A stretch of DNA of 64,000 nucleotides from an uncultured Selenomonadales bacterium (GTDB lineage: Bacteria > Bacillota > Negativicutes > Acidaminococcales > Acidaminococcaceae), in the NCBI GenBank assembly GCA_900315345.1, contig OMYP01000004.1, positions 33,922 to 97,921 of the forward strand. Reading direction: 5' to 3'. The translations under genes were made by a program, and so were the position numbers. Below are positions 1 through 57,359 of the stretch, in pieces. Numbering within the stretch: position 1 is the first letter of the stretch; each line of letters opens with the position of its first letter. The notes beneath the pieces are model-generated. The model saw only the letters and a list, made by a program, of their open reading frames with translations, did no database searches and was not told the origin of the DNA.

Positions 1-1055
1 TTGCGCCTGTAGTAGTGGAGGCAATGCAGAAGGCAGCGGGAGAGATGGGGGTAAAGGAAAGCTTCCGGGGCTACGGCCCGGAGCAGGGATATGATTTCCT
101 GCATGAAGCATTGGTGGAATATTACGCAGGATTCGGCGTTATACTGGCGTCTTCGGAAATTTTTATCAGCGACGGGGCAAAAAGCGACTGCGGCAACATT
201 ACGGATATCTTTGACGACGCAAACGTGATCCTGGTACCCGACCCGGTATACCCGGTCTATCTGGATACCAATATCATGCGGGGACGGAAGATCGTTTTCA
301 TGGAGGGAAGACCGGACAATGATTTCCTGCCTATGCCGGATCCGTCCGTAAAGGCGGATATCATTTACCTGTGCTCGCCCAACAATCCAACCGGGGCTGT
401 TTATTCCAAGGAACAGCTAACGGAATGGGTGGCGTATGCACGTAAGCAGGATGCGGTGATCTTGTTCGATGCGGCTTATGAAGCATTTATTGATGACCCA
501 TCGCTTCCCCGGAGCATTTTTGAGATAGAAGGCGCAAAAGAATGCGCCATTGAACTGTGCTCTCTTTCTAAAACGGCGGGCTTTACCGGAACCCGCTGCG
601 GTTACACGGTAGTGCCGCTGGAACTGAAACGTAAAACCAGGACAGGTAAGGAACTGTCGCTGAATAAAATGTGGCTGCGCCGGCAGACCACCAAATTTAA
701 CGGAGTGCCTTACATTGTGCAGCGGGGAGCGGAAGCGGTGTTTACGCCGGAAGGTCAGAAACAGTGCCGGGAAAATCTGGCATATTATAAGGAAAACGCC
801 CGGCTGATCGGTAAGGCGCTGGAAGAAAAAGGAATTCTGTATTACGGCGGGAAGAATTCCCCGTATATCTGGATGCAGTGCCCCAAAGGCATGAAGTCCT
901 GGGAGTTTTTTGATTACCTGCTGGAAAAGCTGGGCATCGTGGGAACTCCCGGCTCCGGCTTCGGCGCTATGGGAGAAGGCTGGTTCCGCCTGACCGCCTT
1001 TGCCGGACGGGAAGCCACGGAAGAAGCGGTGGAACGGTTCCGCCGTCTTCTGTAG
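1..1055 (+). CDS. dapL: LL-diaminopimelate aminotransferase, 5' end lies outside the window
   Basis: Motifs GYGPEQGY, SDGAKSDCG, CSPNNPTG, FDAAYEAFI and SLSKTAGFTGTRCGY (PLP lysine) are typical of DapL. The ORF is open to the window edge. Confidence 0.93.
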   Translation, partial: APVVVEAMQKAAGEMGVKESFRGYGPEQGYDFLHEALVEYYAGFGVILASSEIFISDGAKSDCGNITDIFDDANVILVPDPVYPVYLDTNIMRGRKIVFMEGRPDNDFLPMPDPSVKADIIYLCSPNNPTGAVYSKEQLTEWVAYARKQDAVILFDAAYEAFIDDPSLPRSIFEIEGAKECAIELCSLSKTAGFTGTRCGYTVVPLELKRKTRTGKELSLNKMWLRRQTTKFNGVPYIVQRGAEAVFTPEGQKQCRENLAYYKENARLIGKALEEKGILYYGGKNSPYIWMQCPKGMKSWEFFDYLLEKLGIVGTPGSGFGAMGEGWFRLTAFAGREATEEAVERFRRLL

Positions 1056-1084
1056 TGACAAGGGTACGTTGATACATAACAGCT

Positions 1085-1146
1085 AAAAGCAACAAAGACG
1101 TTGCGACAGGATTGTTTCTGTCAGTCTTTGTTGCTTTTATTTTTTT
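1085..1146 (+). terminator. Intrinsic terminator/attenuator upstream of glmS, overlapped by an ANTAR-type hexaloop hairpin
   Basis: Perfect 15-bp inverted repeat aaaagcaacaaagac (1085-1099) / gtctttgttgctttt (1124-1138) followed by a T tract. An alternative hairpin gcaac-AAAGAC-gttgc lies at 1089-1104. Confidence 0.85.
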
Positions 1147-1171
1147 GAAAAGAATCAGGGAGGTAGTTTTT

Positions 1172-2995
1172 ATGTGTGGAATCGTTGGTTTTACAGGGGC
1201 CCAGAGCGCAGCGCCCATTTTGCTGGAGGGGTTGAAGAAACTGGAATACCGGGGATATGATTCCGCGGGGATCGCAGTCATGGCCGACAGGAAAATCGCT
1301 GTCCATAAGGTTACGGGGCGCATCTCCAATCTGTGCGAAAAAACCGGTGACGGGTCAAAGGTGCCCGGGACCACAGGGATCGGGCATACCCGCTGGGCGA
1401 CCCATGGAGCGCCCACGGAAGAAAACGCCCATCCCCATCTGAGTAATGACGGGAAATTTGCGGTGGTGCACAACGGTATCATCGAAAACTATATGTCCCT
1501 GCGGGAAGAGCTGATCCGGGACGGATACCATTTTGAAAGTGAAACGGATACAGAGGTTATCGTCCATCTTATCGAAATGTTTTACCGGGGCGATGTGCGG
1601 GAGGCGCTGATCAAGACTACCAACCGGCTTCGGGGGTCCTATGCCCTGGGTGTGATCTGTTCTGAGGAACCGGGAAAGATTTACGCGGTGCGGGAGGCCA
1701 GCCCCCTGATCCTGGGTATCGGGCTTGGGGAAAATTATTTTGCCTCTGACGTGACTGCACTGGTGAACCATACCCGTAATGTCATTTACCTGGAAGACGG
1801 GGAATTCGCGGAACTGTCAGAAGACGCGATCCGTATTTTTGACTGCACCGGCCAGGTCATCAGCCGAAAGGCCACCCGTATATTGTGGGATGTCCAGGCT
1901 GCGGAAAAAGGCGGATACGAACATTTTATGCTGAAAGAGATCATGGAGCAGCCCGGGGCAGTGAAGGCTACCATTGCGCCACGTATTAAAAATGGCGCCA
2001 TTGAGTTTGAAGAAATGGGCCTGTCGGTTGCGGAAATCAAAAACATCCGCAACATTATCATTACAGCCTGCGGTTCGGCTTATTATGCAGGCTGTGCGGG
2101 AAAATACGCTATCGAACGCCTGTCCCGCATCCCGGTTGATGTGGAACTGGCAAGCGAGTTGCGTTACAGCGACCCGCTGATCGACGAGCACACGCTGCTG
2201 ATCGTGATCTCCCAGTCAGGGGAAACGGCAGATACCATCGCGGCCATGAAGGAATGTAAAGATAGAGGCGCCAAGGCCCTGGCCATCGTGAATGTGGTAG
2301 GCAGTTCGGTTGCAAAACTTGCGGATTACACGGTGTATACCTGGGCGGGACCGGAAATAGCCGTTGCAACCACAAAAGGATATACTACCCAGGTGACGGT
2401 CCTGTATATGCTGGCAGTTTTTTTGGGGGATAAGCTGGGACTGATCGGAAACCGGAAAACACAGATGATCCACAGCTTGCAGTCATTGCCCCGCCAGATC
2501 CAGCAGGCCTTCGACCTGAACTCTTCGATTCCTGCATTGGCAAAAAAATACCATGCCAGCAAATCGCTGTTTTTCATCGGCAGGAATACAGATTATGCGG
2601 TGGCCCTGGAAGGCGCCTTAAAAATGAAGGAGATCTCCTATCTCCATGCAGAGGCCTACGCGGCCGGAGAGCTGAAGCACGGCACCATCGCCCTGATCGA
2701 GGAACACCAGCCCGTCATCGCCCTTTGCTGTAATCCTTCTATTATGGAAAAGACGCTGAGCAACATCGTGGAAGTAAAATCCCGCGGGGCGGAGGTGCTG
2801 GCCCTGACCTTCCGGAACAATCATAAGATCCTGTCTGTGGCGGATGATCTGCTGTTTGTGCCAGACATCGATCCCCTGTTTTCCGCCGTGGTGGAAATTG
2901 TGCCGCTGCAGCTGCTGGCCTATTATGTTGCGAAAGAAAACGGATGCGACATTGACAAGCCGAAGAACCTTGCCAAGTCAGTAACAGTAGAGTAA
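1172..2995 (+). CDS. glmS: Glutamine--fructose-6-phosphate aminotransferase (isomerizing)
   Basis: N-terminal MCGIVG, LEYRGYDSAG, GHTRWATHG, two SIS domains and C-terminal DKPKNLAKSVTVE. SD ggagg lies upstream of ATG 1172. Confidence 0.97.
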   Translation: MCGIVGFTGAQSAAPILLEGLKKLEYRGYDSAGIAVMADRKIAVHKVTGRISNLCEKTGDGSKVPGTTGIGHTRWATHGAPTEENAHPHLSNDGKFAVVHNGIIENYMSLREELIRDGYHFESETDTEVIVHLIEMFYRGDVREALIKTTNRLRGSYALGVICSEEPGKIYAVREASPLILGIGLGENYFASDVTALVNHTRNVIYLEDGEFAELSEDAIRIFDCTGQVISRKATRILWDVQAAEKGGYEHFMLKEIMEQPGAVKATIAPRIKNGAIEFEEMGLSVAEIKNIRNIIITACGSAYYAGCAGKYAIERLSRIPVDVELASELRYSDPLIDEHTLLIVISQSGETADTIAAMKECKDRGAKALAIVNVVGSSVAKLADYTVYTWAGPEIAVATTKGYTTQVTVLYMLAVFLGDKLGLIGNRKTQMIHSLQSLPRQIQQAFDLNSSIPALAKKYHASKSLFFIGRNTDYAVALEGALKMKEISYLHAEAYAAGELKHGTIALIEEHQPVIALCCNPSIMEKTLSNIVEVKSRGAEVLALTFRNNHKILSVADDLLFVPDIDPLFSAVVEIVPLQLLAYYVAKENGCDIDKPKNLAKSVTVE

Positions 2996-3021: not shown

Positions 3022-5109
3022 ATGATGAACGTCCCAAAATTATTTGGCAGTCTTACATTTAATGAACGGGTGATGAAGGACCGGCTTCCGGCTAAAACCT
3101 TTGCCACGTTTCGTAAGATGGTGGAGGAAGGACTGCCCCTGACAAGGGAACTGGCCGATATGATGGCCTACGCCATGAAGGACTGGGCACTGGAAAACGG
3201 TTGCACCCATTTTACCCACTGGTTCCAGCCTATGACAGGGATTACGGCGGAAAAGCACGACAGCTTCATTGCTCCGGCAGCGGACGGACGGGTCATCATG
3301 GATTTTTCCGGCAAAGATCTGATCCAGAGTGAACCGGATGCTTCCAGTTTTCCCTCCGGCGGCTTGCGGGCGACCTTCGAAGCCCGGGGATATACGGCAT
3401 GGGATCCCACCAGTTATGCCTTTATCAAAGATGATTGCCTTTATATTCCTACCGCTTTCTGCTCCTACACCGGGGATGTGCTGGATAAAAAGACGCCCCT
3501 TTTGCGTTCCATTACTGTATTAAGCGAAGCGGCGAAACGACTGCTGGCCATTCTTGGTATCCATACGGAAAAAGTGATCACCAATGTGGGACCGGAACAG
3601 GAATATTTCCTGGTAGATAAGGCCATGTGGGAGAAACGGAAGGATCTGGTATTTGCCGGCCGGACCCTGTTTGGCGCCAGACCTCCCAAAGGACAGGAGA
3701 TGGAAGACCATTATTTTGGCGCCATCAAGCCAAGAGTGAAAGCTTTTATGGCAGAACTGGATGAAGAACTGTGGAAGCTGGGAATCCCGGCCAAGACGGA
3801 GCATAACGAAGTGGCCCCTGCCCAGCACGAACTGGCTCCTGTTTATACATCGGTGAACCTGGCCTGCGATTATAACCAGCTGACCATGGAATTCATGAAA
3901 CGTATTGCACTAAAACACAATATGGTCTGCCTGCTGCACGAGAAACCTTTTGACGGTGTAAACGGAAGCGGAAAGCATAACAACTGGTCCTTATCCACGC
4001 TGGAAGGGAAAAACCTGCTGGATCCCGGAAAGGACGCATACCACAATAATCAGTTCCTGCTTTTCCTGGCGGCCATCATCAAAGGCGTGGATGAATATCA
4101 GGATGCGCTGCGGGGAACGGTGGCCAGCGCAGGCAACGATCACCGGTTAGGGGCAAACGAAGCGCCGCCTGCCATTGTCAGTATCTTCCTTGGGACAGAG
4201 CTGACCGGTGTGCTGGAAGCCATTGCTTCCGGACAGGAGTTCAAAGCAAACGGTCATATCCAGATGAAACTCAGCGGCAATACACTGGCTGCGGTCAGCA
4301 AGGATAACACGGACCGCAACCGGACTTCGCCGTTTGCTTTTACGGGCAATAAATTTGAATTCCGCATGGCCGGTTCCCAGGCCAGCCTGGCCTGTCCCAA
4401 CGCATACCTGAACACCATCGTGGCGGAAGAACTGGGGTGGGTGGCAGATAAGCTGGAAGGCACTGCACCGGAAGAACTGGATAAGGCCGTTAAGAATTTG
4501 GTAAAAGAAATCTATCTGGCCCACAAGCGCATCGTATTCAACGGCAACGGCTACACCGATGACTGGGTTGAGGAAGCGGCACAGCGCGGGTTGTATAATA
4601 ACAAATCCACGCCGGAAGCCCTGGCCTGCATGACCAGTAAGAAGAATATAGACCTGGTGGTGAAGCACGGCATCTTTACCAAAGCGGAAGTGCTGTCCCG
4701 TTGCGAGATCCAGTACGAGCTGTACAACAAGACGCTGAACATTGAAGCGCTGACCATGCTGGATATGCTTCATAAAGATCTGTTGCCTGCTGCACAGAAG
4801 TATCTGAAAGACCTGTCTGTAACTGCAGTAAATGAAAAAGAGCTGGGACTGAAACCGGATGTGGCATTTTTGAAAAAGCTGCAGGAAGCCACGGCGGCTA
4901 TGTATAAAGACGGCGAAACCCTGGCGAAAGAACTGGTCAATGCGGAAGGCATCGAAGACCAGAAGAAGGCCAGCGCAGCGTATCATAACAAAGTACTGTC
5001 TGCCATGGAGGCGCTGCGGGCAAGCGGCGACGCGGTAGAGGCCATGCTTGGCAAGGAATATCTGCCCTATCCTACATATGGGGAATTGCTGTTCGGTATC
5101 AACAGCTGA
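3022..5109 (+). CDS. glnN: Glutamine synthetase type III
   Basis: 695 aa with GSIII motifs THFTHWFQPMTG, EPDASSFPSGGLR, HEKPFDGVNGSGKHNNWS, NDHRLGANEAPP and DRNRTSPFAFTGNKFEFR. Confidence 0.95.
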   Translation: MMNVPKLFGSLTFNERVMKDRLPAKTFATFRKMVEEGLPLTRELADMMAYAMKDWALENGCTHFTHWFQPMTGITAEKHDSFIAPAADGRVIMDFSGKDLIQSEPDASSFPSGGLRATFEARGYTAWDPTSYAFIKDDCLYIPTAFCSYTGDVLDKKTPLLRSITVLSEAAKRLLAILGIHTEKVITNVGPEQEYFLVDKAMWEKRKDLVFAGRTLFGARPPKGQEMEDHYFGAIKPRVKAFMAELDEELWKLGIPAKTEHNEVAPAQHELAPVYTSVNLACDYNQLTMEFMKRIALKHNMVCLLHEKPFDGVNGSGKHNNWSLSTLEGKNLLDPGKDAYHNNQFLLFLAAIIKGVDEYQDALRGTVASAGNDHRLGANEAPPAIVSIFLGTELTGVLEAIASGQEFKANGHIQMKLSGNTLAAVSKDNTDRNRTSPFAFTGNKFEFRMAGSQASLACPNAYLNTIVAEELGWVADKLEGTAPEELDKAVKNLVKEIYLAHKRIVFNGNGYTDDWVEEAAQRGLYNNKSTPEALACMTSKKNIDLVVKHGIFTKAEVLSRCEIQYELYNKTLNIEALTMLDMLHKDLLPAAQKYLKDLSVTAVNEKELGLKPDVAFLKKLQEATAAMYKDGETLAKELVNAEGIEDQKKASAAYHNKVLSAMEALRASGDAVEAMLGKEYLPYPTYGELLFGINS

Positions 5110-5491: not shown

Positions 5492-8400
5492 TTATTTTGC
5501 GTCAATCGTTGAAATCCCCATGGTCACTTCTTCCAGTACATCCAGCAGCATCCGCACTGTGTCAAGGGAAGTGAGCATCACTGCGTTATTCTGTGCAGCG
5601 ACCTGCCGGATGGCAACGCCGTCCCCATAGTGTATGCCGGAAAGGATGGCCCGGGTATTGATGACATAACTGACGTACCCTGCACGTATCGAATCCAGAA
5701 TTTCCTGGCTTCCTTCGCTTGGCTTATGACGTATCCGGGTACGGATGCCATGCTGTTTCAGTACTTCCCCTGTTAAAGTAGTGGCTTCGATGTTGAATCC
5801 CATATTGTAGAAACGGCGGATCAGCGGCACTGTCTCTTCTTTATCTTCATCGGCCACGCTGACTACGACGGTGCCGTAGTTTTTCAGTGTCAGGCCGGAG
5901 GCGATCAGCGCTTTGTATGCGGCCCGGTGCAGTTTATCATCGTAGCCGATGGCTTCCCCGGTGGATTTCATTTCCGGTGAAAGATAGGCATCCATACCCC
6001 GGAGCTTGGAGAAGGAAAAGGCGGGAACTTTGACATAATATCGCGTTTTCTCTTTGGGGTACCGTTCCGTGATCCCCTGTTCCCGCAGGGAGACCCCAAG
6101 GATAGCCAACGTGCCCATATCGGCCAGGCTGTAACCTGTAGCTTTTGACAAAAAGGGAACCGTGCGGGAGGAACGGGGATTAACTTCGATGACATAGACC
6201 TGGTTATTTGTGTCCACGATATACTGGACGTTGAACAATCCGATAATACCGATGCCCAGTCCCAGTTTTTCCGTATAATCCAGTATCGTTTCCTTCACGT
6301 TTTCGGAAAGGCTGTAGGATGGATATACGCTGATAGAGTCGCCGGAATGGACACCGGTCCGTTCCACCAGTTCCATGATGCCGGGGACGAAGACATGTTC
6401 TCCGTCGCAGACCGCATCTACTTCTACTTCTTTGCCCCGGATATATTTATCTACAAGCACGGGTTTGTCTTCATCTACTTCTACTGCGGTTTTCAGATAG
6501 TCCCCCATATCCTTTTCTTTTCCCACAATCTGCATAGCCCGGCCGCCCAGGACAAAGCTGGGGCGTACAAGAACCGGAAATCCGATCTGGCGGGCTGCTT
6601 CCAGCCCTGCTTCAATGGTCGTGACGGCCTGCCCCGGAGGCTGGGGGATGCCCAGTGAAAGCAGAAGTTTTTCGAAGGAGTCCCGGTTTTCTGCACGGTC
6701 TATGGCATCGCAGTCTGTGCCGATGATCTTTACGCCCCGTTCACGCAGTGGTTCGGCCAGATTGATGGCTGTCTGTCCGCCCAGGGTAGCAATGACGCCG
6801 TCGGGCTTTTCCATCTCGATGATATTCATTACATCTTCCGGGCAGAGAGGCTCGAAGTACAGTTTGTCGGAACAGGTATAGTCGGTGGAAACGGTTTCCG
6901 GGTTATTGTTGATGATGATGGCTTCATAACCCGCTTTTTGGATGGTCCGGACCGCGTGGACGGTGGAATAGTCGAATTCAACGCCCTGCCCGATACGGAT
7001 GGGGCCGGCTCCCAGCACGACAATTTTTTTCCGTGAAGAAATACGGGATTCATTCTCTTCTTCGTATGTAGAATAAAAGTAGGGGATGTAACTTTCAAAT
7101 TCCGAGGCACAGGTATCGATCATTTTATAAACCGGTGTGATTCCGTTACGGCAGCGCAGTTCATAAATGTTCCGTTCCGATCTGTTCCACAGCAACGCGA
7201 TTTCTTTGTCGGAAAAGCCTGTTCTCTTTGCGCTGTGCAATACTTGCAGATCATCCGGATGGCTGCGGATTTCGGTCTCCAACGCGACGATATTACGAAT
7301 TTTCCGCAGGAAGAACCGGTCGATTGCCGTCTGGCCGGCAATGGTGTCCTCATTACAGCCCAGGCGGAACAGTTGCGCGATAGCATAGATCCGGTCGTCG
7401 GTCCCGATGCGTATGTAGTTGAGCAAGTCTTGTTCCGGTACAGCGTCAAATTTCGGCAAATGGATGTGAAAAGTGCCAATCTCCAAAGAGCGGATGCCTT
7501 TCAGCAGGCTTTCCTCAAAGGTCCGGCCAATGCTCATCACTTCCCCGGTAGCTTTCATCTGGGTGGAAAGGGAGTTATTTGCGTCTGAGAATTTATCGAA
7601 GGGGAAACGGGGCAGTTTTGTTACCACGTAATCCAGCGCCGGCTCAAAAGAGGCCGGGGTATTGGCAATCTGAATCTCGTCCAGGGTCATGCCGATGCCG
7701 ATTTTGGCGGAGACGCGGGCAATGGGATAGCCGCTTGCCTTGGATGCAAGGGCGGAGGAACGGGAGACCCGGGGATTTACTTCGATGAGATAATACTGGA
7801 AAGAGTTTGGGTCCAGTGCAAACTGTACGTTGCACCCGCCTTCGATCTTCAGTGCCCGGATAATTTTCAGGGCACTGTCCCGCAGCATATGATATTCCTT
7901 GTTGGTCAGGGTCTGGGAAGGGCAGACTACAATGGAGTCGCCAGTGTGGATGCCAACGGGATCCAGGTTTTCCATATTGCATATGGTAATGGCTGTATCA
8001 TTCCGGTCCCGCATCACTTCGTATTCGATTTCCTTAAAGCCCCGGATGCTTTTTTCAATCAGTACTTCCCGGACGGGGGAGAGGGAAAGGGCATGTTTCA
8101 TCAGAGGCAGGAATTCCGCCTCGTTTTCCGCAAAACCGCCGCCGGTTCCCCCCAGGGTGAAAGCCGGACGTAATACCACAGGGTAGCCGATCTTTTCAAC
8201 GACCTTCAGTCCCTCTTCAAGGGAACTGGCGATGTCAGAAGGCAGCACCGGTTCATTAAGTTTAGTACACAGTTCCTTGAAGAGTTCCCGGTCTTCCGCC
8301 TGTTCGATGGAATGGCTGTCGGTACCCAGCAGTTCCACATGGCACTCAGCCAGTATACCTTTCTTCTCCAGCTGCATGGCAAGGTTCAGACCGGTCTGTC

Positions 8401-8674
8401 CGCCGATGCCCGGAAGGATTGCATCCGGTCGTTCGTAGCGGATGATCTTAGCAATGTATTCCAGTGTCAGGGGTTCCATATAGACCTTATCGGCGATGCT
8501 GGTATCGGTCATAATGGTGGCGGGATTGGAGTTGCATAGGATGACTTCGTATCCTTCTTCTTTCAGGGCCAGGCAGGCCTGGGTTCCGGCGTAATCAAAT
8601 TCTGCTGCCTGCCCGATGACAATAGGGCCGGACCCTATGACAAGAATCTTTCTGAGGTCTGTTCTTTTAGGCAT
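5492..8674 (-). CDS. carB: Carbamoyl-phosphate synthase large subunit
   Basis: 1060 aa. MPKRTDLRKILVIGSGPIVIGQAAEFDYAG, duplicated ATP-grasp domains (IEVNPRVSRSS, IEVNPRSSRTVP) and a C-terminal MGS domain. Confidence 0.98.
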   Translation of the reverse strand: MPKRTDLRKILVIGSGPIVIGQAAEFDYAGTQACLALKEEGYEVILCNSNPATIMTDTSIADKVYMEPLTLEYIAKIIRYERPDAILPGIGGQTGLNLAMQLEKKGILAECHVELLGTDSHSIEQAEDRELFKELCTKLNEPVLPSDIASSLEEGLKVVEKIGYPVVLRPAFTLGGTGGGFAENEAEFLPLMKHALSLSPVREVLIEKSIRGFKEIEYEVMRDRNDTAITICNMENLDPVGIHTGDSIVVCPSQTLTNKEYHMLRDSALKIIRALKIEGGCNVQFALDPNSFQYYLIEVNPRVSRSSALASKASGYPIARVSAKIGIGMTLDEIQIANTPASFEPALDYVVTKLPRFPFDKFSDANNSLSTQMKATGEVMSIGRTFEESLLKGIRSLEIGTFHIHLPKFDAVPEQDLLNYIRIGTDDRIYAIAQLFRLGCNEDTIAGQTAIDRFFLRKIRNIVALETEIRSHPDDLQVLHSAKRTGFSDKEIALLWNRSERNIYELRCRNGITPVYKMIDTCASEFESYIPYFYSTYEEENESRISSRKKIVVLGAGPIRIGQGVEFDYSTVHAVRTIQKAGYEAIIINNNPETVSTDYTCSDKLYFEPLCPEDVMNIIEMEKPDGVIATLGGQTAINLAEPLRERGVKIIGTDCDAIDRAENRDSFEKLLLSLGIPQPPGQAVTTIEAGLEAARQIGFPVLVRPSFVLGGRAMQIVGKEKDMGDYLKTAVEVDEDKPVLVDKYIRGKEVEVDAVCDGEHVFVPGIMELVERTGVHSGDSISVYPSYSLSENVKETILDYTEKLGLGIGIIGLFNVQYIVDTNNQVYVIEVNPRSSRTVPFLSKATGYSLADMGTLAILGVSLREQGITERYPKEKTRYYVKVPAFSFSKLRGMDAYLSPEMKSTGEAIGYDDKLHRAAYKALIASGLTLKNYGTVVVSVADEDKEETVPLIRRFYNMGFNIEATTLTGEVLKQHGIRTRIRHKPSEGSQEILDSIRAGYVSYVINTRAILSGIHYGDGVAIRQVAAQNNAVMLTSLDTVRMLLDVLEEVTMGISTIDAK

Positions 8675-9767
8675 GGCGTCCCCCTTCTTTCTCCATCATA
8701 CGGATAAACTCATCAAACAGATAGACGCTGTCCTGGGGACCCGGAGCGCTTTCCGGGTGATACTGTACGCTGAACACCTTGTCCTTTTTGCTGGCAACTC
8801 CTTCCACGGTATGGTCCAGCAGGTTCACATGGGTGACCGATAAAGGCGTATGGGCAAGGCTGTCTCTGTCCACTGCATAGGAATGGTTTTGCGAAGTGAT
8901 TTCAATCCGTCCTGTCAGGAGATTTTTTACCGGATGATTGCCTCCCCGGTGTCCGAATTTCAGCTTGTATGTTTTGGCGCCACAGGCCAGAGAGATAATC
9001 TGGTGACCCAGGCAGATGCCAAACAGGGGGGCGGAGCCTATCAGTGTACGGATCGTTTTGATGGTCTGGGGCACATCTGTGGGATCGCCGGGCCCGTTGG
9101 AAATAAAAATCCCGTCCGGATGAATGGCTGAAATTTCTTCCGCAGAGGTATTCCAGGGCACAACAGTTACTTTGCAGCCGCGCCGGTTCAGGGAACGCAC
9201 AATGTTCAGCTTCATGCCGCAGTCGATGGCTGCCACATGAAACTGTTCCTTCTCTGCATGGGATACCCATGCATTTTTGCAGCTGACGCGGGATACGGCG
9301 TCTGTAGGAAGTTCATAATCCCTTATAATGCGAAGACCTTCTTCCAGCGGGGTGGAAGCGGATGTGATCAGAGCCTTGCAGCTGCCGAAGTCGCGAATCC
9401 TCCGGTTCAGTTTGCGGGTGTCGATACCCTGTATTCCCGCAATGTCATACTTCTTCATGACGGAATCCAGTGTAGCTGCACTGCGAAAATTCGAAGGCTC
9501 GTCGTTGTATTCCCGAACAATAAGCGCTCCCATACCCGGAGTGCAGGATTCGTAATCGTCTTCCGCCATACCGTAGTTGCCGATCAGCGGATAGGTCATC
9601 ACCACTGCCTGATCGGTATAGGACGGGTCAGACAGAATTTCCTGATATCCTGCCATGGAGGTGTTGAAAACGATTTCCAATACGCGCTGCCCTGTGGCGC
9701 CGAAAGTGTATCCGTAATATTCCTGCCCGTTTTCCAGAATGATTTTCCGGTTAAAATCCATTGTCAT
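8667..9767 (-). CDS. carA: Carbamoyl-phosphate synthase small subunit
   Basis: EIVFNTSMAGYQE, SNGPGDP, FGICLGHQ (catalytic Cys) and FSVQYHPE. Overlaps the carB start by 8 bp. Confidence 0.97.
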   Translation of the reverse strand: MTMDFNRKIILENGQEYYGYTFGATGQRVLEIVFNTSMAGYQEILSDPSYTDQAVVMTYPLIGNYGMAEDDYESCTPGMGALIVREYNDEPSNFRSAATLDSVMKKYDIAGIQGIDTRKLNRRIRDFGSCKALITSASTPLEEGLRIIRDYELPTDAVSRVSCKNAWVSHAEKEQFHVAAIDCGMKLNIVRSLNRRGCKVTVVPWNTSAEEISAIHPDGIFISNGPGDPTDVPQTIKTIRTLIGSAPLFGICLGHQIISLACGAKTYKLKFGHRGGNHPVKNLLTGRIEITSQNHSYAVDRDSLAHTPLSVTHVNLLDHTVEGVASKKDKVFSVQYHPESAPGPQDSVYLFDEFIRMMEKEGGRHA

Positions 9768-9901
9768 AACTGACGCCTCGTTTTTCTTTTCTAAGGAAAC
9801 ACTGATTAAATGAGTTTGTGCGCTTGCCGAGGGCTTTTTGCGAATGACAAGGAAGTGGCTCGAAGGCGCAGCGGGGCTGCGTCAAGAGACAGTTTACAAA
9901 C

Positions 9902-9959
9902 AAAAAAAATAAAGGCGCCTATCACCGCACCTTGCAGCACGGCAATAAACGCCTTTGTT
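9902..9959 (-). terminator. Attenuator terminator in the carA leader with an overlapping ANTAR-type hexaloop
   Basis: Minus strand aaaggcgtttattgccg...cggtgataggcgccttt plus a T tract. An alternative hairpin aac-AAAGGC-gtt lies at 9959-9948. Confidence 0.8.
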
Positions 9960-9968
9960 ATCTATGAA

Positions 9969-9997
9969 ATTTTAACATTCTGATCGGATTTTGTCAA
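9969..9997 (-). promoter_or_regulatory. Sigma-A promoter of carAB
   Basis: Minus strand TTGACA-17 bp-TAAAAT. Confidence 0.75.
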
Positions 9998-10016: not shown

Positions 10017-10628
10017 TCACTTTCTGCTTTTCTTTTTTTCGGTTTCTTTTTCGTGTATCTCTGCGCTGGCAATGACGGCCCTGGCTACTGCCTTCAGGGA
10101 AAGCCGGCGGTCCATGCTCAGTTTCTGCATGGCACGGAAGGCGTCTTTTTCCGAAAATTTATACTGATCCATCAGGATACCTTTGGCTCTGTCCAGCAAC
10201 TTCCGTGTTTCCAAATCGTCCTTGGCTTTGTCCAGTTCAGAATTTAACCGCTGGAACGCGGCAAACCGGTGGATCGCGATTTCTATGGCAGGGAAGAGCT
10301 CTTCTTCCCGGATGGGTTTTACCAGATAGGCAAATACGCCGGAATCAGTGGCCTGCTGCACGATTTCACGCTGGCTGTAGGCTGTCAGAAGAAGCACCGG
10401 CGCCAGTTTCTCGTCGCCAATGATCCGGGCCGCTTCCAGTCCGTCCATTTCCGGCATTTTCACGTCCATAATCACCAGGTCAGGCTTTTTCTGTTTTGTT
10501 ATGTCTATGGCAACTTTCCCGTTTTCCGCTTCGCCTATTACGGTGTGGCCTGCTCCTTCCAGCATTTCCCGCAGGTCAAGGCGCAGTAACGCTTCATCGT
10601 CTGCTATCAGGATCTTTAACGGTTTCAC
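10017..10628 (-). CDS. Response regulator, REC + ANTAR RNA-binding antitermination domain (EutV/NasT/PdtaR-like)
   Basis: Receiver motifs ADDE, DLVIMDVKMP, LLLTAY and YLVKP, then a coiled coil and the ANTAR signature RKLLDRAKGILM...SEKDAFRAMQKLSMD. GTG start with SD ggagggg. Confidence 0.93.
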   Translation of the reverse strand: MKPLKILIADDEALLRLDLREMLEGAGHTVIGEAENGKVAIDITKQKKPDLVIMDVKMPEMDGLEAARIIGDEKLAPVLLLTAYSQREIVQQATDSGVFAYLVKPIREEELFPAIEIAIHRFAAFQRLNSELDKAKDDLETRKLLDRAKGILMDQYKFSEKDAFRAMQKLSMDRRLSLKAVARAVIASAEIHEKETEKKKSRK

Positions 10629-10713
10629 ACATACCCCTCCGTAACAAAATAGTAATCCGTATTGTATCACCGTTTACTTAACAATTGCGCACGCTTATTA
10701 AATCCACGTTTCC

Positions 10714-12225
10714 TTATAAAAGAAAACGTACCTTTGCAACAGTCCCTTTGCCTTTTGGACGGGGCTCCAGGCTGAATGTGCCCTTCAAATCTGACTGAAC
10801 TACCGTCTGGACGATCTTTAATCCAAGACTCTGGGTCTTATGCAGGTCAAAACCCCGGGGCAGGCCTTTGCCGTTATCTTCAACCTGCAGCAGCAAGGCA
10901 GTATCGTTTCCTTTTTTCATGCCGGCAGACAGTCCTGCGTTTCCTGTGTCTAAAGAGTTGTCAGAACGTATTCCGTTTTGGTTCAGCCGTGTAATCGTTG
11001 CAGTCAGTTTACCGCGTTTCTTATTTTCAAAACCATGTTCAAGAGCGTTTTGCAGCAGTTCGTTTAATACCAGGGCAAGGCTTGCGGCCTGCTGGGAGGG
11101 CAGCCGCAGATCGTCGGCGGAAAAATTCATCTCAAGTTCCAGGTCCGGGGCTTTCATGCTGCTCATGACGGTTCGGAAAATACCGTTGCCCAGCTGGTTG
11201 ATATCTACAGTCTCTGTGCCCTGTCCGGAAAGGTATTCGTGGACCAGGGCAATGCTGCTGATGCGGTTGATAGAATCCCGCAGTACGAACCGGGTTTCCT
11301 CTGATGCTGCCCGGCGTTGTTCAAGGCGCAGGAGGCTGGCAATGGTCTGCAGGTTGTTCTTGACCCGGTGATGGATCTCACGGATCACAGCGGCTTTTAC
11401 CCGCAGTTCTTCGTCTTTCAGCTTCAGCTGCGTCACGTCTTCGATGACGGCGATAATACGTTTTATGTTACCGTCTACCTGCAGCGGGATAAAGCGGCAG
11501 TCAAGGAAAAGGCCTTTTTGTTGCAGTTCCTCTTCTTCGGCGGCTCCTGTCCGCAGCACATTGTCGATGCCATTCCAGTTGATTTCCGGGTTGGTGGTAT
11601 AGCGTCCTACCAGGGAACCGACCCCCAGTACCCGGTAAATATGCCGGGCCGCGTTGTTGGCTGCCAGTATACGCCGGTCTTCCGCATTTACCAGTACCAG
11701 CCCGTCGATGCTGGACAGACGGCGGTAACAGAGGTTGGATGCGTAATCTGTTCTGCTGCCCCGCAGAAAATCCATGGTAGTATCCCAAAATACCACGTCG
11801 GCCTCCCGGTCTTCAAAAGCGGCGGCTGCAAAGCACCGGTTTTCTGCGTCAAAGATGGGATATACTTTCAGGCGCGCAAACTGTCCGGCAGAAAATTCCC
11901 GGAACCCTTCCGTTACAGTTTTTTCCTCCAATGCCCGGGTTACCAGAGGCTCATCCTCTGCCCGTGTGATCTCTTCCGGTTCGGAATTTTCCGAGCGGGT
12001 AAGGGGCTCGGCCTGGTCGAACACACTTAAAAAGACGATTCCCCTGCTGGTGTTTAGGTCAGAGCCTGTATCCTGTCCTGCAGCAATATAGGCGAATTGC
12101 CGACTACGGTCCAGCGGCAGGATCAGGGAGATTTTCGCCTGGGCCAGATCGGCTGCCAGGCCCAGGTTGCTGCGCATGCCGTCCAAAATATCCCATTGTT
12201 CCTGTGTCAGTTGTTTAATCATCAT
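10714..12225 (-). CDS. Cytoplasmic sensor histidine kinase, HisKA_2 type (EutW/PdtaS-like)
   Basis: H-box EIHHRVKNNLQ, N-box LNELLQNALEHG, EDNGKG and SLGLKIV. N-terminal LAADLAQA segment and a PAS-like region. No transmembrane helix evident. Confidence 0.9.
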   Translation of the reverse strand: MMIKQLTQEQWDILDGMRSNLGLAADLAQAKISLILPLDRSRQFAYIAAGQDTGSDLNTSRGIVFLSVFDQAEPLTRSENSEPEEITRAEDEPLVTRALEEKTVTEGFREFSAGQFARLKVYPIFDAENRCFAAAAFEDREADVVFWDTTMDFLRGSRTDYASNLCYRRLSSIDGLVLVNAEDRRILAANNAARHIYRVLGVGSLVGRYTTNPEINWNGIDNVLRTGAAEEEELQQKGLFLDCRFIPLQVDGNIKRIIAVIEDVTQLKLKDEELRVKAAVIREIHHRVKNNLQTIASLLRLEQRRAASEETRFVLRDSINRISSIALVHEYLSGQGTETVDINQLGNGIFRTVMSSMKAPDLELEMNFSADDLRLPSQQAASLALVLNELLQNALEHGFENKKRGKLTATITRLNQNGIRSDNSLDTGNAGLSAGMKKGNDTALLLQVEDNGKGLPRGFDLHKTQSLGLKIVQTVVQSDLKGTFSLEPRPKGKGTVAKVRFLL

Positions 12226-12242
12226 AACCTACCTTGCTTAAA

Positions 12243-12286
12243 TAAAAAAGCAGGCAAAGGCATGGCGGTCTTTGTCTGCTTTGACA
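12243..12286 (-). terminator. Attenuator terminator in the kinase leader with an overlapping ANTAR-type hexaloop
   Basis: Minus strand aaagcagacaaag...ctttgcctgcttt (12 of 13 pairs) plus a T tract. An alternative hairpin tgtc-AAAGCA-gaca lies at 12286-12273. Confidence 0.78.
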
Positions 12287-12349
12287 TTCTTTATGTTACT
12301 GTAACACGAAGAAGGATGATTGTCAATTATCCTTTTGGAAAACAAAGCA

Positions 12350-18676: not shown

Positions 18677-18701
18677 TAGTCACAAGTTAATATTTTTATT
18701 T

Positions 18702-19028
18702 GGCTGTGAAGAGAAGAGTACGCAGAGGAAAATGCCACAGAGAGCTTTCGGTTTGGTGCAAGAAAGCGCAGGGAACTTTGCCGAAGATGGCCTTGGAGCC
18801 GGCTGGTCGAAGTAATTAAGACCGCCCGGGCGCACCCGTTACAGTGCTGGGGTATTCAAGGAGAAGTTCCCGCGTGCCCGAGAAGCTAATCTGATAAATT
18901 TATTTTTGCTGCTCGCGGTATCAGGGGAAAGAACCCGCGTACCCGAGGAGGCCGGACGTGTGAGCGTCCGGTGAATATGGGTGGTAACACGATGCCTTCG
19001 TCCCATTTGGGGCGGAGGCGTTTTTTAT
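18702..19028 (+). ncRNA. T-box riboswitch, Met-specific
   Basis: AG box (agagag), GGTGNRA motif (ggtgcaa), specifier codon ATG at 18787-18789, T-box aatatgggTGGTaacacg at 18974-18991, terminator gccttcgtccc...ggggcggaggcgtttttt. Sits upstream of metA. Confidence 0.9.
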
Positions 19029-31558: not shown

Positions 31559-32968
31559 TCAATCTCCGCACCGGAAAGGAAATGGATTCCCTTCCGGTAT
31601 CTCCATGGGATAGTTTCCATCAAAGCAACCGGTGCAGATGGGGAGCCCCTTTACCATTTCAGATAACGCATGGATGTCAAGATATCCTAATGAATCCGCA
31701 TCCAGCATTTGCCGGATATCCTCCAATGAATAGTGGTTGGCGATCAGTTCTTCGCCGGAAGAAACATCTGTGCCGAAATAGCAGGGGTGGCGGAACGGCG
31801 GGGAGCTGATCCGTACATGGACTTCCCGGGCGCCTGCGTCTTTCAGCATTTGTACGAGATGTTTCATGGTGGTGCCCCGGACAATGGAGTCGTCTATCAG
31901 GACGATGCGTTTTCCGGCAACGGCCGCCTGCAGTACGCTGAGTTTCATATGTACGCTGTTCTCCCGCTCTTCCTGGGAAGGCTTGATAAACGTCCGGCCG
32001 ATATAGGAATTTTTATAAAAAACAAAGCCGAAGGGGATGCCCGAGGCTTCCGCATAGCCTTTGGCGGCAGGCAGTCCCGATTCAGGAACGCCGGTCACCA
32101 GGTCTGCTGCCACAGGGTGCGATTCTGCCAGCGCTTTTCCTGCAGCGATACGGGCGTCGTAAACGCTGACTCCGTCTATACAGCTGTCCAGTCTCGCAAA
32201 ATAGATGTATTCAAAAATACAATGGGCGCATTTTTCCTGTTGAAGGGAATCATCGGATTCTATTCCTTCTGCAGAGATGGTAACCAGTTCCCCCGGCTCG
32301 ATGTCCCTGATGAATGTCGCACCCGTGGCGGTAAGGGCGCAACTTTCCGAAGCCAGCACATAAGCGTTGCCGCGTTTTCCCAGGCAAAGGGGCTTCAGTC
32401 CGAAGGGATCCCGTAACCCCATCAGCTTTTTAGGGCTCATGATGACCAGCGCATAGGCGCCGATCAGTTTGCGAGCAGTGGCTAATACGGCTTTCTGTAT
32501 GGTTTTTGCATGTACTCTTTCTTTTGCCAGATAAAAGGCTATCACTTCCGAATCTGCGGTAGTATGGAATACGGCGCCGTTTTGGACCAGTTCCCATTTC
32601 AGGTCGGCGGTGTTTACCAGATTGCCGTTATGGGCCAGGGCCAGCGTTCCTTTTATGTAAGAAATCACAAGAGGCTGGGCGTTTTCCGGTCTGGAACCGC
32701 CGGTGGTAGAATAACGCACATGGCCGACGCCCAGATTGCCACGGATTTCTTTCACATTTTTTTCATGGAACACTTCGCTGACAAGACCTGCATCTTTGAG
32801 GCACTGGCAGTTCCCGACGGGACCCTGTGTGTTTGAAACTGCCATGCCGCAAGCTTCCTGGCCCCGATGCTGGAGGGCCATCAGTCCGTAATAAATGGAA
32901 TGGGCGACGTCAGCGCCGTTCAAATCAAAGATACCGAAGACGCCGCATTCTTCTTTTGGCTTATCCAT
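31559..32968 (-). CDS. purF: Amidophosphoribosyltransferase
   Basis: Propeptide KEECGVFG, LQHRGQE, GHVRYST, HNGNL, CIFEYIYFAR, DDSIVRGTT and CTGCF. Confidence 0.95.
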   Translation of the reverse strand: MDKPKEECGVFGIFDLNGADVAHSIYYGLMALQHRGQEACGMAVSNTQGPVGNCQCLKDAGLVSEVFHEKNVKEIRGNLGVGHVRYSTTGGSRPENAQPLVISYIKGTLALAHNGNLVNTADLKWELVQNGAVFHTTADSEVIAFYLAKERVHAKTIQKAVLATARKLIGAYALVIMSPKKLMGLRDPFGLKPLCLGKRGNAYVLASESCALTATGATFIRDIEPGELVTISAEGIESDDSLQQEKCAHCIFEYIYFARLDSCIDGVSVYDARIAAGKALAESHPVAADLVTGVPESGLPAAKGYAEASGIPFGFVFYKNSYIGRTFIKPSQEERENSVHMKLSVLQAAVAGKRIVLIDDSIVRGTTMKHLVQMLKDAGAREVHVRISSPPFRHPCYFGTDVSSGEELIANHYSLEDIRQMLDADSLGYLDIHALSEMVKGLPICTGCFDGNYPMEIPEGNPFPFRCGD

Positions 32969-33035: not shown

Positions 33036-34835
33036 TTAAAGGGGATAATCCTGCAACGCGTCAAATCCTTCTTCGCCTGTACGGATTTTAACTACGTTGT
33101 CGACAGTGGAGATGAAAATCTTTCCGTCTCCGTATTTACCGGTGTAAAGGACTTTTTTTGCTATATCAATGATCGTGCGGGGCGGAATGGCGGAGACAAC
33201 GATGTCCAGGCGGATTTTAGGCAGCAGCCGTGAGGCGACGGATGCGCCCCGGTACATTTCCGTATGGCCTTTTTGCAGTCCGTAACCATGGACCTCTGTG
33301 ACTGTCATACCGGTAATACCGATATTTTCCAAAGCGGTTTTCAGCGACAGGAAGCGTTCTTTGGACGTGATGATGGTTACAAGGGAATAGGCGTGGCCGT
33401 CAGGCGTTGCGGGACGGGATGCCGGATTCGTTTGGGAAAAGAGGCGAGGCATTCTGTTTGCAACTGTAGTCGAATCTTCTGTCGCTGCGGGCATATGCTC
33501 CGGCGCTGGCATGAAATCGGCGTAAGCAGAGGTGAGGCCGTGTTCTTCAAAATCCAGTCCGGCGATTTCTTCTTTGGCAGTTACCCGCAATCCAATGGTA
33601 GCTTTAATTGATTTAAAGACGATGCCTGCTGCGATCGCCACATATACAATGACGGCGATGACGCCGGTAAGCTGTACAATAAAAAAGTGGGGATCGCCAC
33701 AGTAGAGCCAGCCGTCCTGTTTAGACAGCAGGCCGGTGAATACGGTACCCAGCGCGCCGCAGACGCCGTGTACCGAAACGGCGCCGACAGGATCGTCGAT
33801 TTTCAGCTTCTGGTCGATGAATTCAATGGAATAGACTACGACAATTCCGGCAATGAGGCCGATAGCGAACGCGCCGGGTACGGTGACCAGGTCGCAGCCA
33901 GCTGTAATAGCTACCAGACCTGCCAGTGCTCCGTTCAATGTCATGGAAACGTCAGGCTTTCCGTAGCGGATCCAGGTCAGGAACATGACGGTGCAGGTGG
34001 CGACAGCGGCGGACATGTTGGTGGTTACGAAAATGTGCGCGGCAGACTGGATCGCTTCGTCACCGGTCATGCTGACGGTAGAACAGCCGTTGAAGCCGAA
34101 CCAGGCGAACCAGAGTATGAACACTCCCAGGGTCGCAAGGGGCAAACTGTGGCCGGGAATAGCATTGACAGTTCCGTCTTCATTGTATTTGCCGATACGG
34201 GGCCCCAGCAGCCAGGCGCCGATGCAGGCACAGACGCCGCCTACCATATGCACCGCGGTGGAACCGGCAAAATCGTGAAAGCCCATCTGGGCCAGCCAGC
34301 CGCCGCCCCAGATCCAGTGGCCGGAAACCGGGTAGATGATCAGGCTGATGAGGATGCTGTAAATGCAGTAGGAAGAAAATTTTGTACGTTCTGCCATGGA
34401 CCCGGAAACGATGGTGGCGGCCGTCGCGCAGAAAACAGTCTGGAAGATCAGAAATGCCATGGCGGGATAGCCGGCATCTTCCGCAACGGTAAAATGTGTT
34501 GCAAAAAAATCCGGACTGCCAATGATGCCGTTAATATCTGCCCCAAACATGAGTCCGAAGCCGATGATCCAGAATACCGGCGTACCCAAAGCGAAGTCCA
34601 TCACATTTTTCATAACGATATTGCCTGCGTTTTTAGCGCGGGTCAGACCCGTTTCGCACATGGCAAAACCTGGCTGCATAAAAAATACCAGGGCGGCGCC
34701 CAGCAGCACCCAGATCGTGTCTGCAGACGAATATCGCAAGGGAAGTGGGTCCGCTGCAAAAGCAGGCGCGGGAATCAGGCTGAGGCAAAGTACGGCCGGA
34801 ATAATTTGAAACAATAAGCTACCCGATTTTTTCAT
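33036..34835 (-). CDS. amtB: Ammonium transporter AmtB fused to a C-terminal PII (GlnK-like) domain
   Basis: FMQPGFAM.ETG, DFAGSTAVH, WFGFNG, NGALAGLVAITA and DDPVGAVSVHG, followed in frame by GITGMTV..V.GYG.QKG..EMYRG, LLPKI and GKYGDGKIFI...VKIRTGE. Confidence 0.93.
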   Translation of the reverse strand: MKKSGSLLFQIIPAVLCLSLIPAPAFAADPLPLRYSSADTIWVLLGAALVFFMQPGFAMCETGLTRAKNAGNIVMKNVMDFALGTPVFWIIGFGLMFGADINGIIGSPDFFATHFTVAEDAGYPAMAFLIFQTVFCATAATIVSGSMAERTKFSSYCIYSILISLIIYPVSGHWIWGGGWLAQMGFHDFAGSTAVHMVGGVCACIGAWLLGPRIGKYNEDGTVNAIPGHSLPLATLGVFILWFAWFGFNGCSTVSMTGDEAIQSAAHIFVTTNMSAAVATCTVMFLTWIRYGKPDVSMTLNGALAGLVAITAGCDLVTVPGAFAIGLIAGIVVVYSIEFIDQKLKIDDPVGAVSVHGVCGALGTVFTGLLSKQDGWLYCGDPHFFIVQLTGVIAVIVYVAIAAGIVFKSIKATIGLRVTAKEEIAGLDFEEHGLTSAYADFMPAPEHMPAATEDSTTVANRMPRLFSQTNPASRPATPDGHAYSLVTIITSKERFLSLKTALENIGITGMTVTEVHGYGLQKGHTEMYRGASVASRLLPKIRLDIVVSAIPPRTIIDIAKKVLYTGKYGDGKIFISTVDNVVKIRTGEEGFDALQDYPL

Positions 34836-34864
34836 GATGATCGATCCCTCTCTTTCAGAATACG

Positions 34865-34912
34865 AAAAAAAGCGCCTGATTGTGAGTGGATCACAATCAG
34901 ACGCCGATGTCT
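34865..34912 (-). terminator. Attenuator terminator in the amtB leader with an overlapping ANTAR-type hexaloop
   Basis: Minus strand gcgtctgattgtga-tccac-tcacaatcaggcgc plus T7. An alternative hairpin agac-ATCGGC-gtct lies at 34912-34899. Confidence 0.82.
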
Positions 34913-35025
34913 CGAACGAATTGATTTGGTAAATCTGCAAAAGCAATGCGCGCAAATTTAGCTTTGCAGACTTACAAATGTATGGTAACACTTTATTTAA
35001 AATCCGTCAAGATTTTTTGCGCAGC

Positions 35026-57235: not shown

Positions 57236-57255
57236 ATCAAAAATTAAATAGCATT

Positions 57256-57359
57256 ACCTTTAAAACGGTCCTGTGAGACTGTAAGGTGACTTAGTTAAGT
57301 ATTATGGAAGATGATAAGCCTTCTTGCATCCTGCGGGACAAGAAGGCTTTTATTTTTTT
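57256..57359 (+). ncRNA. PyrR-binding attenuator (binding loop and terminator)
   Basis: ccTTTAAaacgGTCCTGTGAGACtgtaagg matches the PyrR binding loop. Terminator aagccttcttg...caagaaggctttt. Confidence 0.88.

Follow-up and report, generated by a model that had tools for sequence, protein, structure and literature searches.

Four operon leaders in a 64,000-nt stretch of DNA from an uncultured Selenomonadales bacterium of the Acidaminococcaceae (contig OMYP01000004.1; the whole stretch is called the window in the following) contain a short hairpin with a six-nucleotide loop, here named H1, that overlaps an intrinsic terminator. The leaders precede glmS-glnN, carAB, a sensor kinase-response regulator operon and amtB-PII, and they are probably attenuators of the ANTAR type. 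With somewhat less confidence, we favor the view that the PdtaR-like regulator encoded next to carAB, phosphorylated by its kinase, stabilizes these hairpins and permits read-through. An original prediction made from the sequence had placed ANTAR leaders at the four operons; this placement is now backed by the fit to the published consensus, by conservation and covariation among relatives and by synteny, and binding and read-through are what these features would predict.

Four leaders combine a weak hexaloop hairpin with a strong terminator

In the leader of glmS-glnN (plus strand) H1 occupies positions 1089–1104 (gcaac-AAAGAC-gttgc, 5 bp with a closing C-G pair, −4.7 kcal/mol on its own). The terminator at 1084–1139 (to 1146 with the T-run) was calculated at −27.6 kcal/mol in isolation and at −28.4 kcal/mol for the leader segment; its 5′ arm includes the 5′ arm and the loop of H1, and the stem next to the U-tract was lost when H1 was forced. 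The other three leaders are read from the minus strand. Upstream of carAB, H1 at 9948–9959 (aac-AAAGGC-gtt) has 3 bp and a free energy of +1.3 kcal/mol alone, next to a terminator of −29.8 kcal/mol at 9956–9911 (9902–9956 with the T-run). H1 of the kinase leader (12273–12286, tgtc-AAAGCA-gaca, 4 bp) is joined to a terminator of −11.5 kcal/mol at 12282–12247 (12241–12282 with the T-run), and H1 of the amtB-PII leader (34899–34912, agac-ATCGGC-gtct, 4 bp) to one of −23.4 kcal/mol at 34905–34871 (34864–34905 with the T-run). Sequence and folding thus reproduce the four hairpins of the original prediction, each lying on the 5′ arm of a canonical intrinsic terminator.

Across the leaders, folding yielded +1.3 to −4.7 kcal/mol for the H1 hairpins compared with −11.8 to −30.6 kcal/mol for the terminators. 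Forcing H1 made the U-tract-adjacent terminator stem vanish in all four cases, so that the two folds are mutually exclusive in these calculations. Since H1 is weak and the terminator strong, a stabilizing factor would be needed for H1 to prevail, and the modeled leader anatomy is that of a protein-dependent antiterminator.

Sigma-70-like promoters with a 17-nt spacer and a TG extension were found ahead of three of the four leaders, all on the minus strand: at 9969–9997 for carA (TTGACA-17-TAAAAT, 11/12 matches, kept in relatives), at 12298–12326 for the kinase operon (TTGACA-17-TACAGT, 10/12 matches) and at 34982–35010 for amtB (TTGACG-17-TACCAT, kept in the related loci L003, L006, L008 and L027). 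The carA promoter places the predicted transcription start ∼5–8 nt 5′ of H1.

The hairpins fit the ANTAR consensus and are conserved in relatives

The published ANTAR consensus reads SYAC|AAHGRH|GUDB for the first hairpin (P1) and RRGY|AAHGDV|GCYY for the second (P2) (Ramesh et al. 2012, PMC3369931, Figures S1 and S2). All four leaders present a hexaloop that is closed by a C-G pair and has A at loop position 1 and G at position 4 (A1/G4). The glmS and carA hairpins (caaC-AAAGAC-Guug and aaC-AAAGGC-Guu) are textbook P1 sequences, and their loops AAAGAC and AAAGGC are identical to P1/P2 loops listed for eut leaders (PMC3369931). The kinase hairpin (uguC-AAAGCA-Gaca) comes near the consensus, and the amtB hairpin (agaC-AUCGGC-Gucu) deviates from it at loop position 2.

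All four leaders are kept in Succiniclasticum relatives. H1 of glmS recurs in L001, L006, L010, L014, L024 and L026, where the loop variants AAAGGT and AAAGAT are compensated in the 3′ arm of the terminator. The carA-leader ATAGATAACAAAGGCGTT is unchanged in nine relatives, save for AAAGGT in L003, and the upper stem of the carAB terminator covaries among them. A leader of the kinase type stands ahead of purF-kinase-regulator in L002–L006, L008, L027 and L028 and ahead of the kinase in L001 and L010; H1 of amtB is unchanged in L003, L006, L008, L027 and L028. Stem bases outside the terminator do not change among relatives. Loop positions 5 and 6 vary (AAAGAC to AAAGGT or AAAGAT, AAAGGC to AAAGGT), each time matched by changes in the terminator 3′ arm. 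The closing C-G pair, A1 and G4 are invariant in 14 distinct sequences from the four leader families, and the three inner pairs are paired in 14/14 of them with substitutions on both sides.

Stems that vary around fixed loop positions point to an RNA hairpin instead of a DNA operator. We therefore find it barely credible that the inverted repeats past the promoters are operators of a dimeric repressor of the GlnR/TnrA kind, even if their 6-bp spacer and their position, about +5 to +25 relative to sigma-70-like promoters, would suit such a role. The half-sites differ from leader to leader (CAAC/GTTG, AAC/GTT, TGTC/GACA, AGAC/GTCT) and the spacer positions are fixed, whereas an operator would show the opposite pattern. 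G-U pairs are tolerated, a terminator is coupled to every site, and the spacing is unlike that of the TGTNAN7TNACA box, which is the site bound by TnrA and GlnR. The operator reading was rejected on this pattern of variable stem and conserved loop.

Specificity of the element

A permissive scan for the motif plus terminator found four matches in the window, whereas 40 simulated windows (first-order Markov) contained 1.3 on average and never more than 3. The count by itself is weak evidence; location and conservation carry the case. All four matches lie in 5′ leaders of nitrogen genes. The original prediction had named such hexaloops at unrelated terminators as a possible counter-finding: of ∼12 other credible intergenic terminators in the window none has a C-G-closed A1/G4 hexaloop, and three carry looser A1/G4 loops closed by A-U or G-U. 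A hand-calculated Fisher's exact test gave P ∼3–6 × 10−4 for the location, with categories that were picked post hoc. When the search was extended to 440 kb (the window and 26 related loci), the intergenic matches all fell within the four leader families, that is glmS or glnN, carA, purF or kinase, and amtB; the remainder was a handful of intra-coding matches with poor terminators.

These data also bear on the idea that the hexaloops are by-products of A-tract terminators of the AAAG...CTTT form, which would be constitutive or controlled in another way, for example by nucleotide-sensing reiterative transcription at the start. In favor of this, AAAG opens three of the four loops and at the same time forms the base of the terminator arm that pairs with the U-tract; loose A1/G4 hexaloops do occur at the three unrelated terminators, a simulated window offers 1.3 permissive matches, and the carA stem is short. 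However, relatives show no substitution in those 5′ stem bases that the terminator does not include (TGTC, AGAC, AAC). Four unrelated leader families, and also 32 distinct amtB hairpins of other Firmicutes (see below), share the closing C-G, A1 and G4; substitutions at loop positions 5 and 6 are compensated in the terminator and leave A1 and G4 untouched, and the C-G-closed form occurs at no other good terminator of the window. We judge a by-product origin to be quite improbable.

Rfam was searched over the whole window at gathering thresholds and over the leaders at permissive E-values, and no family was returned for any of the four leaders. Matches in the window were confined to a T-box, tRNAs and a PyrR site below threshold, and the two other leader terminators of the window belong to the T-box and PyrR systems. 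No glmS ribozyme was detected ahead of glmS (Rfam, 1000–1200, plus strand), where the hexaloop attenuator stands instead, even though the bacterium is a Firmicute. A glmS ribozyme, a purine riboswitch and PyrR were rejected as explanations of the four leaders: no Rfam family fits, and the sole PyrR match lies at pyrB.

The adjacent two-component pair resembles PdtaS/PdtaR

The sensor kinase gene (10714–12225, minus strand) encodes 503 aa with GAF_PdtaS, PAS, HisKA_2 and HATPase_c domains in Pfam. Bit scores were 29.2 for GAF_PdtaS (cut-off 23.7), 79.3 for HisKA_2 and 34.4 for HATPase_c; the PAS matches lie slightly below the cut-off. No hydrophobic segment was seen in the translation, read by eye, which indicates a soluble, cytoplasmic protein, and solubility and domain set are those of a PdtaS-type kinase. 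A comparison with solved PdtaS sensor structures gave no sequence match. The nearest homologues of the kinase, at 57–99% identity, come from rumen metagenome-assembled genomes and from Succiniclasticum ruminis DSM 9236 (Acidaminococcaceae); the window itself is from a rumen bacterium that resembles Succiniclasticum. S. ruminis DSM 9236 is a cultivable type strain, and its locus, L006, bears the same leaders.

The regulator gene (10017–10628, minus strand, 203 aa) has a GTG start 7 nt 3′ of GGAGG. Its product is a PdtaR-like receiver-ANTAR (REC-ANTAR) protein with Pfam matches to Response_reg (E 5.9e-28) and ANTAR (E 7.5e-20), alignable over its full length with Mycobacterium tuberculosis Rv1626 (PdtaR, PDB 1S8N, E 1e-54) and with EutV (6WSH, E 2e-40). 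Structural work has identified the EutV residues in contact with the flipped G4 and with the backbone of the loop (Walshe et al. 2022, PMC8934654). In the regulator R142, K143, K149, E160, M172 and R175 are kept and Y164 is replaced by F, as it is in Rv1626. The protein therefore combines a receiver domain, with a DLVIMD motif and the phospho-acceptor Asp, and a C-terminal ANTAR domain with RNA-contact residues. No other ANTAR protein is encoded in the window.

According to Pfam, the two genes that lie directly upstream of carAB do encode a HisKA_2 kinase and a REC-ANTAR regulator, as had been claimed. The original prediction had called this pair EutVW-like, a description that does not hold: because the regulator resembles PdtaR more closely than EutV and the kinase carries the PdtaS GAF domain, the pair is by its sequence PdtaS/PdtaR-like and not specifically EutVW-like. 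As had been claimed, no eut genes are found among the annotated open reading frames (ORFs) of the window. The neighbors are carAB, glnN and glmS, joined in relatives by amtB and purF, and the locus thus differs from an ethanolamine system in kinase, regulator and gene context.

On the minus strand the order is HU gene, kinase, regulator, carA (8667–9767) and carB (5492–8674), carA lying downstream of the regulator. The plus strand carries glmS (1172–2995) and glnN for a type III glutamine synthetase (3022–5109), with an aminotransferase gene nearby; all these genes were assigned with Pfam. The amtB-PII gene (33036–34835, minus strand, NCBIfam) is located ∼23 kb from the kinase region. Its hairpin and terminator are as predicted, and amtB-PII itself proved to be a single fused ORF of 599 aa, with Amt at residues 39–435 and PII at residues 485–589. 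The purF gene (31559–32968, minus strand) follows 67 nt behind it, without a terminator in the intergenic region.

Most relatives have amtB-PII first, followed by leader-purF-kinase-regulator and leader-carA-carB, with glnN and glmS convergent beyond carB. What we call the kinase leader of the window is orthologous to the purF leader of these relatives. The claim that the kinase has a leader of its own is therefore correct for the window, where the element precedes the kinase, and applies to purF in relatives. Judged from gene order, the window appears to be rearranged: amtB-purF moved off, the purF leader was lost from purF and the leader remained with the kinase. Homologous kinase-regulator pairs at 57–72% identity adjoin glnN.

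A single hairpin per terminator

The leaders depart from the two tandem hairpins (P1 and P2) of ANTAR RNA. We found no conserved partner P1 hexaloop hairpin within 130 nt upstream or inside the terminator in any leader family. The original prediction had already noted that P1 is missing and regarded this as a possible variant; the absence is real, and it is not peculiar to this genome. A scan of the window for dual hairpins gave 54 pairs compared with ∼39 in simulation, a difference that is not informative, and the only pair located in a leader involves an ATTGTT loop in the glmS leader of the window, which is not conserved. In carA, purF/kinase and, for L010 and L024, glmS-type leaders the predicted transcription starts lie 2–9 nt 5′ of H1, so that there is no space for P1. 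The minimal ANTAR binding site has been redefined as a single hexaloop (Walshe et al. 2022, PMC8934654).

A long 5′ part is confined to the amtB leader and contains a hairpin at 34934–34970 (minus strand) with a covarying stem, without a hexaloop and without an Rfam match, whose apex is GCGCGCA or GCACGCA in all relatives. This hairpin could be a 5′ stabilizer or a second regulatory input.

A metagenome scan was carried out with the Amt-PII protein. It returned 80 loci at 54–83% identity with both the Amt and the PII part covered, 73 of them with sufficient upstream DNA. At 40 of these 73 loci amtB is preceded by a C-G-closed A1/G4 hexaloop hairpin, the loop and 3′ arm of which double as the 5′ arm of a terminator. 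The 40 loci comprise 32 distinct hairpins with loops that are chiefly AAAGGC, AATGGC, AAGGGC and AAAGGT; a consistent partner hairpin is lacking, and tandem pairs of units are frequent. The same element precedes glnN in many metagenome loci, and in L088 and L052 the hexaloop attenuator adjoins NitR-like ANTAR genes. In gut Firmicutes the single-hairpin layout is widely found ahead of amtB-PII and glnN. In the literature searched we found no description of single-hexaloop ANTAR antitermination.

Two further observations concern these metagenome loci. Two tandem hexaloop-plus-terminator units stand upstream of amtB-PII in L053, L056, L047 and L077, which suggests serial attenuation in other gut Firmicutes, and many of the 80 Amt-PII fusion loci are located directly 3′ of glnN.

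A candidate circuit for nitrogen and glutamine genes

In the mechanism that we propose, the terminator would fold by default and transcription would halt in the leader. Once the kinase has phosphorylated the regulator, an ANTAR dimer would bind the hexaloop hairpin and hold it, the terminator stem next to the U-tract would be blocked and RNA polymerase would read into the operon. Four operons would respond, namely glmS-glnN, carAB, kinase-regulator and amtB-PII, the last probably together with purF. The circuit would be self-reinforcing, since such a leader also stands ahead of the kinase-regulator operon. The signal is presumably the cytoplasmic nitrogen or glutamine status, perceived via the GAF or PAS domains. 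We infer binding and read-through, the acting ANTAR protein, autoregulation, the direction of the response and the signal or ligand from the features described above.

Several points weigh against this scheme. EutV antitermination needs both hairpins (Walshe et al. 2022, PMC8934654), and the leaders have one. Transcription starts were deduced from promoter-like hexamers only, the carA stem has just 3 bp, the amtB loop carries U at position 2 and the number of motifs in the window is only ∼3-fold above the simulated expectation. Kinase-regulator pairs at 40–45% identity are flanked by tsaEBD/rimI and groESL, and as neither nitrogen genes nor the motif occur in their vicinity they offer no comparison for the leaders. 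In addition, only 64 kb of the genome are in view, and the true regulator could be encoded elsewhere.

The last two points lead to the main rival, in which the leaders are genuine ANTAR attenuators that are read by an ANTAR protein encoded at another place in the genome, for example a NitR-like protein beside glnA as in Clostridia, and the PdtaS/PdtaR pair controls something else. The occurrence of the motif beside NitR-like genes in the clostridial loci L088 and L052 speaks for such a reader, as does the tsaD/groES context of distant PdtaS/R homologues, which is unrelated to nitrogen. We nevertheless consider another reader unlikely: the regulator is the sole ANTAR gene in the window, most relatives transcribe it together with purF from behind such a leader and directly upstream of the carA leader, and the pairs at 57–72% identity likewise adjoin glnN. 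The slot between tsaEBD/rimI and groESL looks like a generic position in other Negativicutes, and given the housekeeping context of the distant pairs, the association of the pair with nitrogen genes is specific to the Succiniclasticum lineage.

We put forward a broader proposal only tentatively. One 5′-proximal hexaloop may suffice for ANTAR antitermination, in the absence of the P1 and P2 pair on which EutV depends, and among Firmicutes of gut and rumen this form may prevail at the ammonium and glutamine assimilation genes. Succiniclasticum may have recruited a PdtaS/PdtaR homologue as a cytoplasmic sensor of nitrogen or glutamine status, with the regulon extended to the glutamine amidotransferase genes carA, purF and glmS.

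Comparison with known systems

EutV/EutW of Enterococcus faecalis (PMC3369931, PMC8934654) likewise consist of a REC-ANTAR regulator and a cytoplasmic kinase. In both systems C-G-closed A1/G4 hexaloops compete with an intrinsic terminator and the RNA-contact residues are kept. Unlike EutVW, the system described here has one hairpin per terminator, a kinase with the PdtaS GAF domain and a regulator closer to PdtaR. Its targets would be nitrogen-assimilation and glutamine-amidotransferase genes, in a window whose annotated ORFs include no eut gene.

A nitrogen-status ANTAR regulon, as foreseen in the original prediction, fits the data; the idea as such is known already. ANTAR regulons were assigned mostly to nitrogen metabolism by Ramesh et al. 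2012 (PMC3369931), who predicted glutamine synthetase, Amt and PII targets in many Firmicutes. Their predictions for Clostridia and Desulfotomaculum (Table S2) comprise the motif with an overlapping terminator, often beside an ANTAR regulator gene, and the clostridial glnA-nitR arrangement has the same layout in L088 and L052. However, a two-hairpin model underlies these predictions, a NitR-like regulator often takes the place of a PdtaR-like protein with its own kinase, and carAB, purF and glmS are absent from the target tables of that study.

An experimental precedent exists in Geobacter sulfurreducens, where GnfK/GnfR relieves premature termination in nitrogen-gene leaders, among them those of glnK and amtB. 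The target leaders of GnfR share one conserved CAGGCAANGGCGCC (GGC-AANGGC-GCC hexaloop) that overlaps the terminators (Ueki and Lovley 2010, PMC2995071). Here, too, a histidine kinase and a REC-ANTAR regulator accompany a single element on nitrogen-gene terminators, in this case known from sequence alone. The two systems belong to different phyla; GnfK is without an evident sensor domain and is transcriptionally controlled by GnfL/GnfM together with RpoN (PMC2995071). GnfR acts on nif genes, whereas the leaders of the window have sigma-70-like promoters and the predicted targets include carAB, purF and glmS.

PdtaS/PdtaR (Rv3220c/Rv1626) of M. tuberculosis provides the nearest solved relative of the regulator and has the same kinase architecture. 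Copper and nitric oxide are among the inputs of PdtaS. Published reports also name c-di-GMP (cyclic di-GMP) and intracellular iron as inputs, and they describe mycobacterial ANTAR RNAs as dual stem-loops that act on translation and on lipid and redox genes. A nitrogen regulon or nitrogen role of PdtaS/PdtaR was not found in the literature searched. The new elements are carAB, purF and glmS as predicted targets, the nitrogen link of a PdtaS/R homologue and the consistent single-hairpin layout.

Should the model be correct, the widespread but little understood PdtaS/PdtaR family would gain a concrete, testable role outside actinobacteria in the sensing of nitrogen or glutamine status, and the set of ANTAR-controlled genes would gain carAB, purF and glmS. 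Attenuators would here replace the glmS ribozymes, the PurR or purine riboswitches and the PyrR or ArgR of other Firmicutes. The leaders would also be natural one-hairpin attenuators with which the need for two hairpins in antitermination can be probed, and they would show how an abundant rumen succinate-utilizer tunes ammonium assimilation. The finding reveals no new regulatory principle.

Other features of the window

A T-box leader (RF00230, 95.5 bits) at 18697–19008 on the plus strand precedes the genes for homoserine O-succinyltransferase and a Cys/Met pyridoxal phosphate enzyme; it is presumably a methionine T-box. Upstream of pyrB (57380–58339), a PyrR site was matched at full length at 57253–57356 (plus strand; RF00515, 45.4 bits, E 1.7e-5), a score that is below the RF00515 gathering score of 54. 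The match terminates in a terminator at 57316–57349. By these sequence matches pyrB appears to be under PyrR attenuation while carAB is under a hexaloop leader.

Between the carA leader terminator and carA there is an insertion of ∼88 bp (9806–9893, minus strand), which is absent in L001 and L006. The public runs are rumen metatranscriptomes in the form of contigs, which carry no strand, start or termination signal. They revealed that the insertion is multi-copy: one contig of run X25 skips it, and contig depth over the insertion is 260–500x compared with 10–15x for the flanks. The same repeat family, ending GCACAAACTCATTTAATCAGYGNTTCC, occurs at many intergenic sites in L001, L003, L009, L024 and L027, and the insertion looks like a repeat of Succiniclasticum genomes of the miniature inverted-repeat transposable element (MITE) or repetitive extragenic palindrome (REP) kind.

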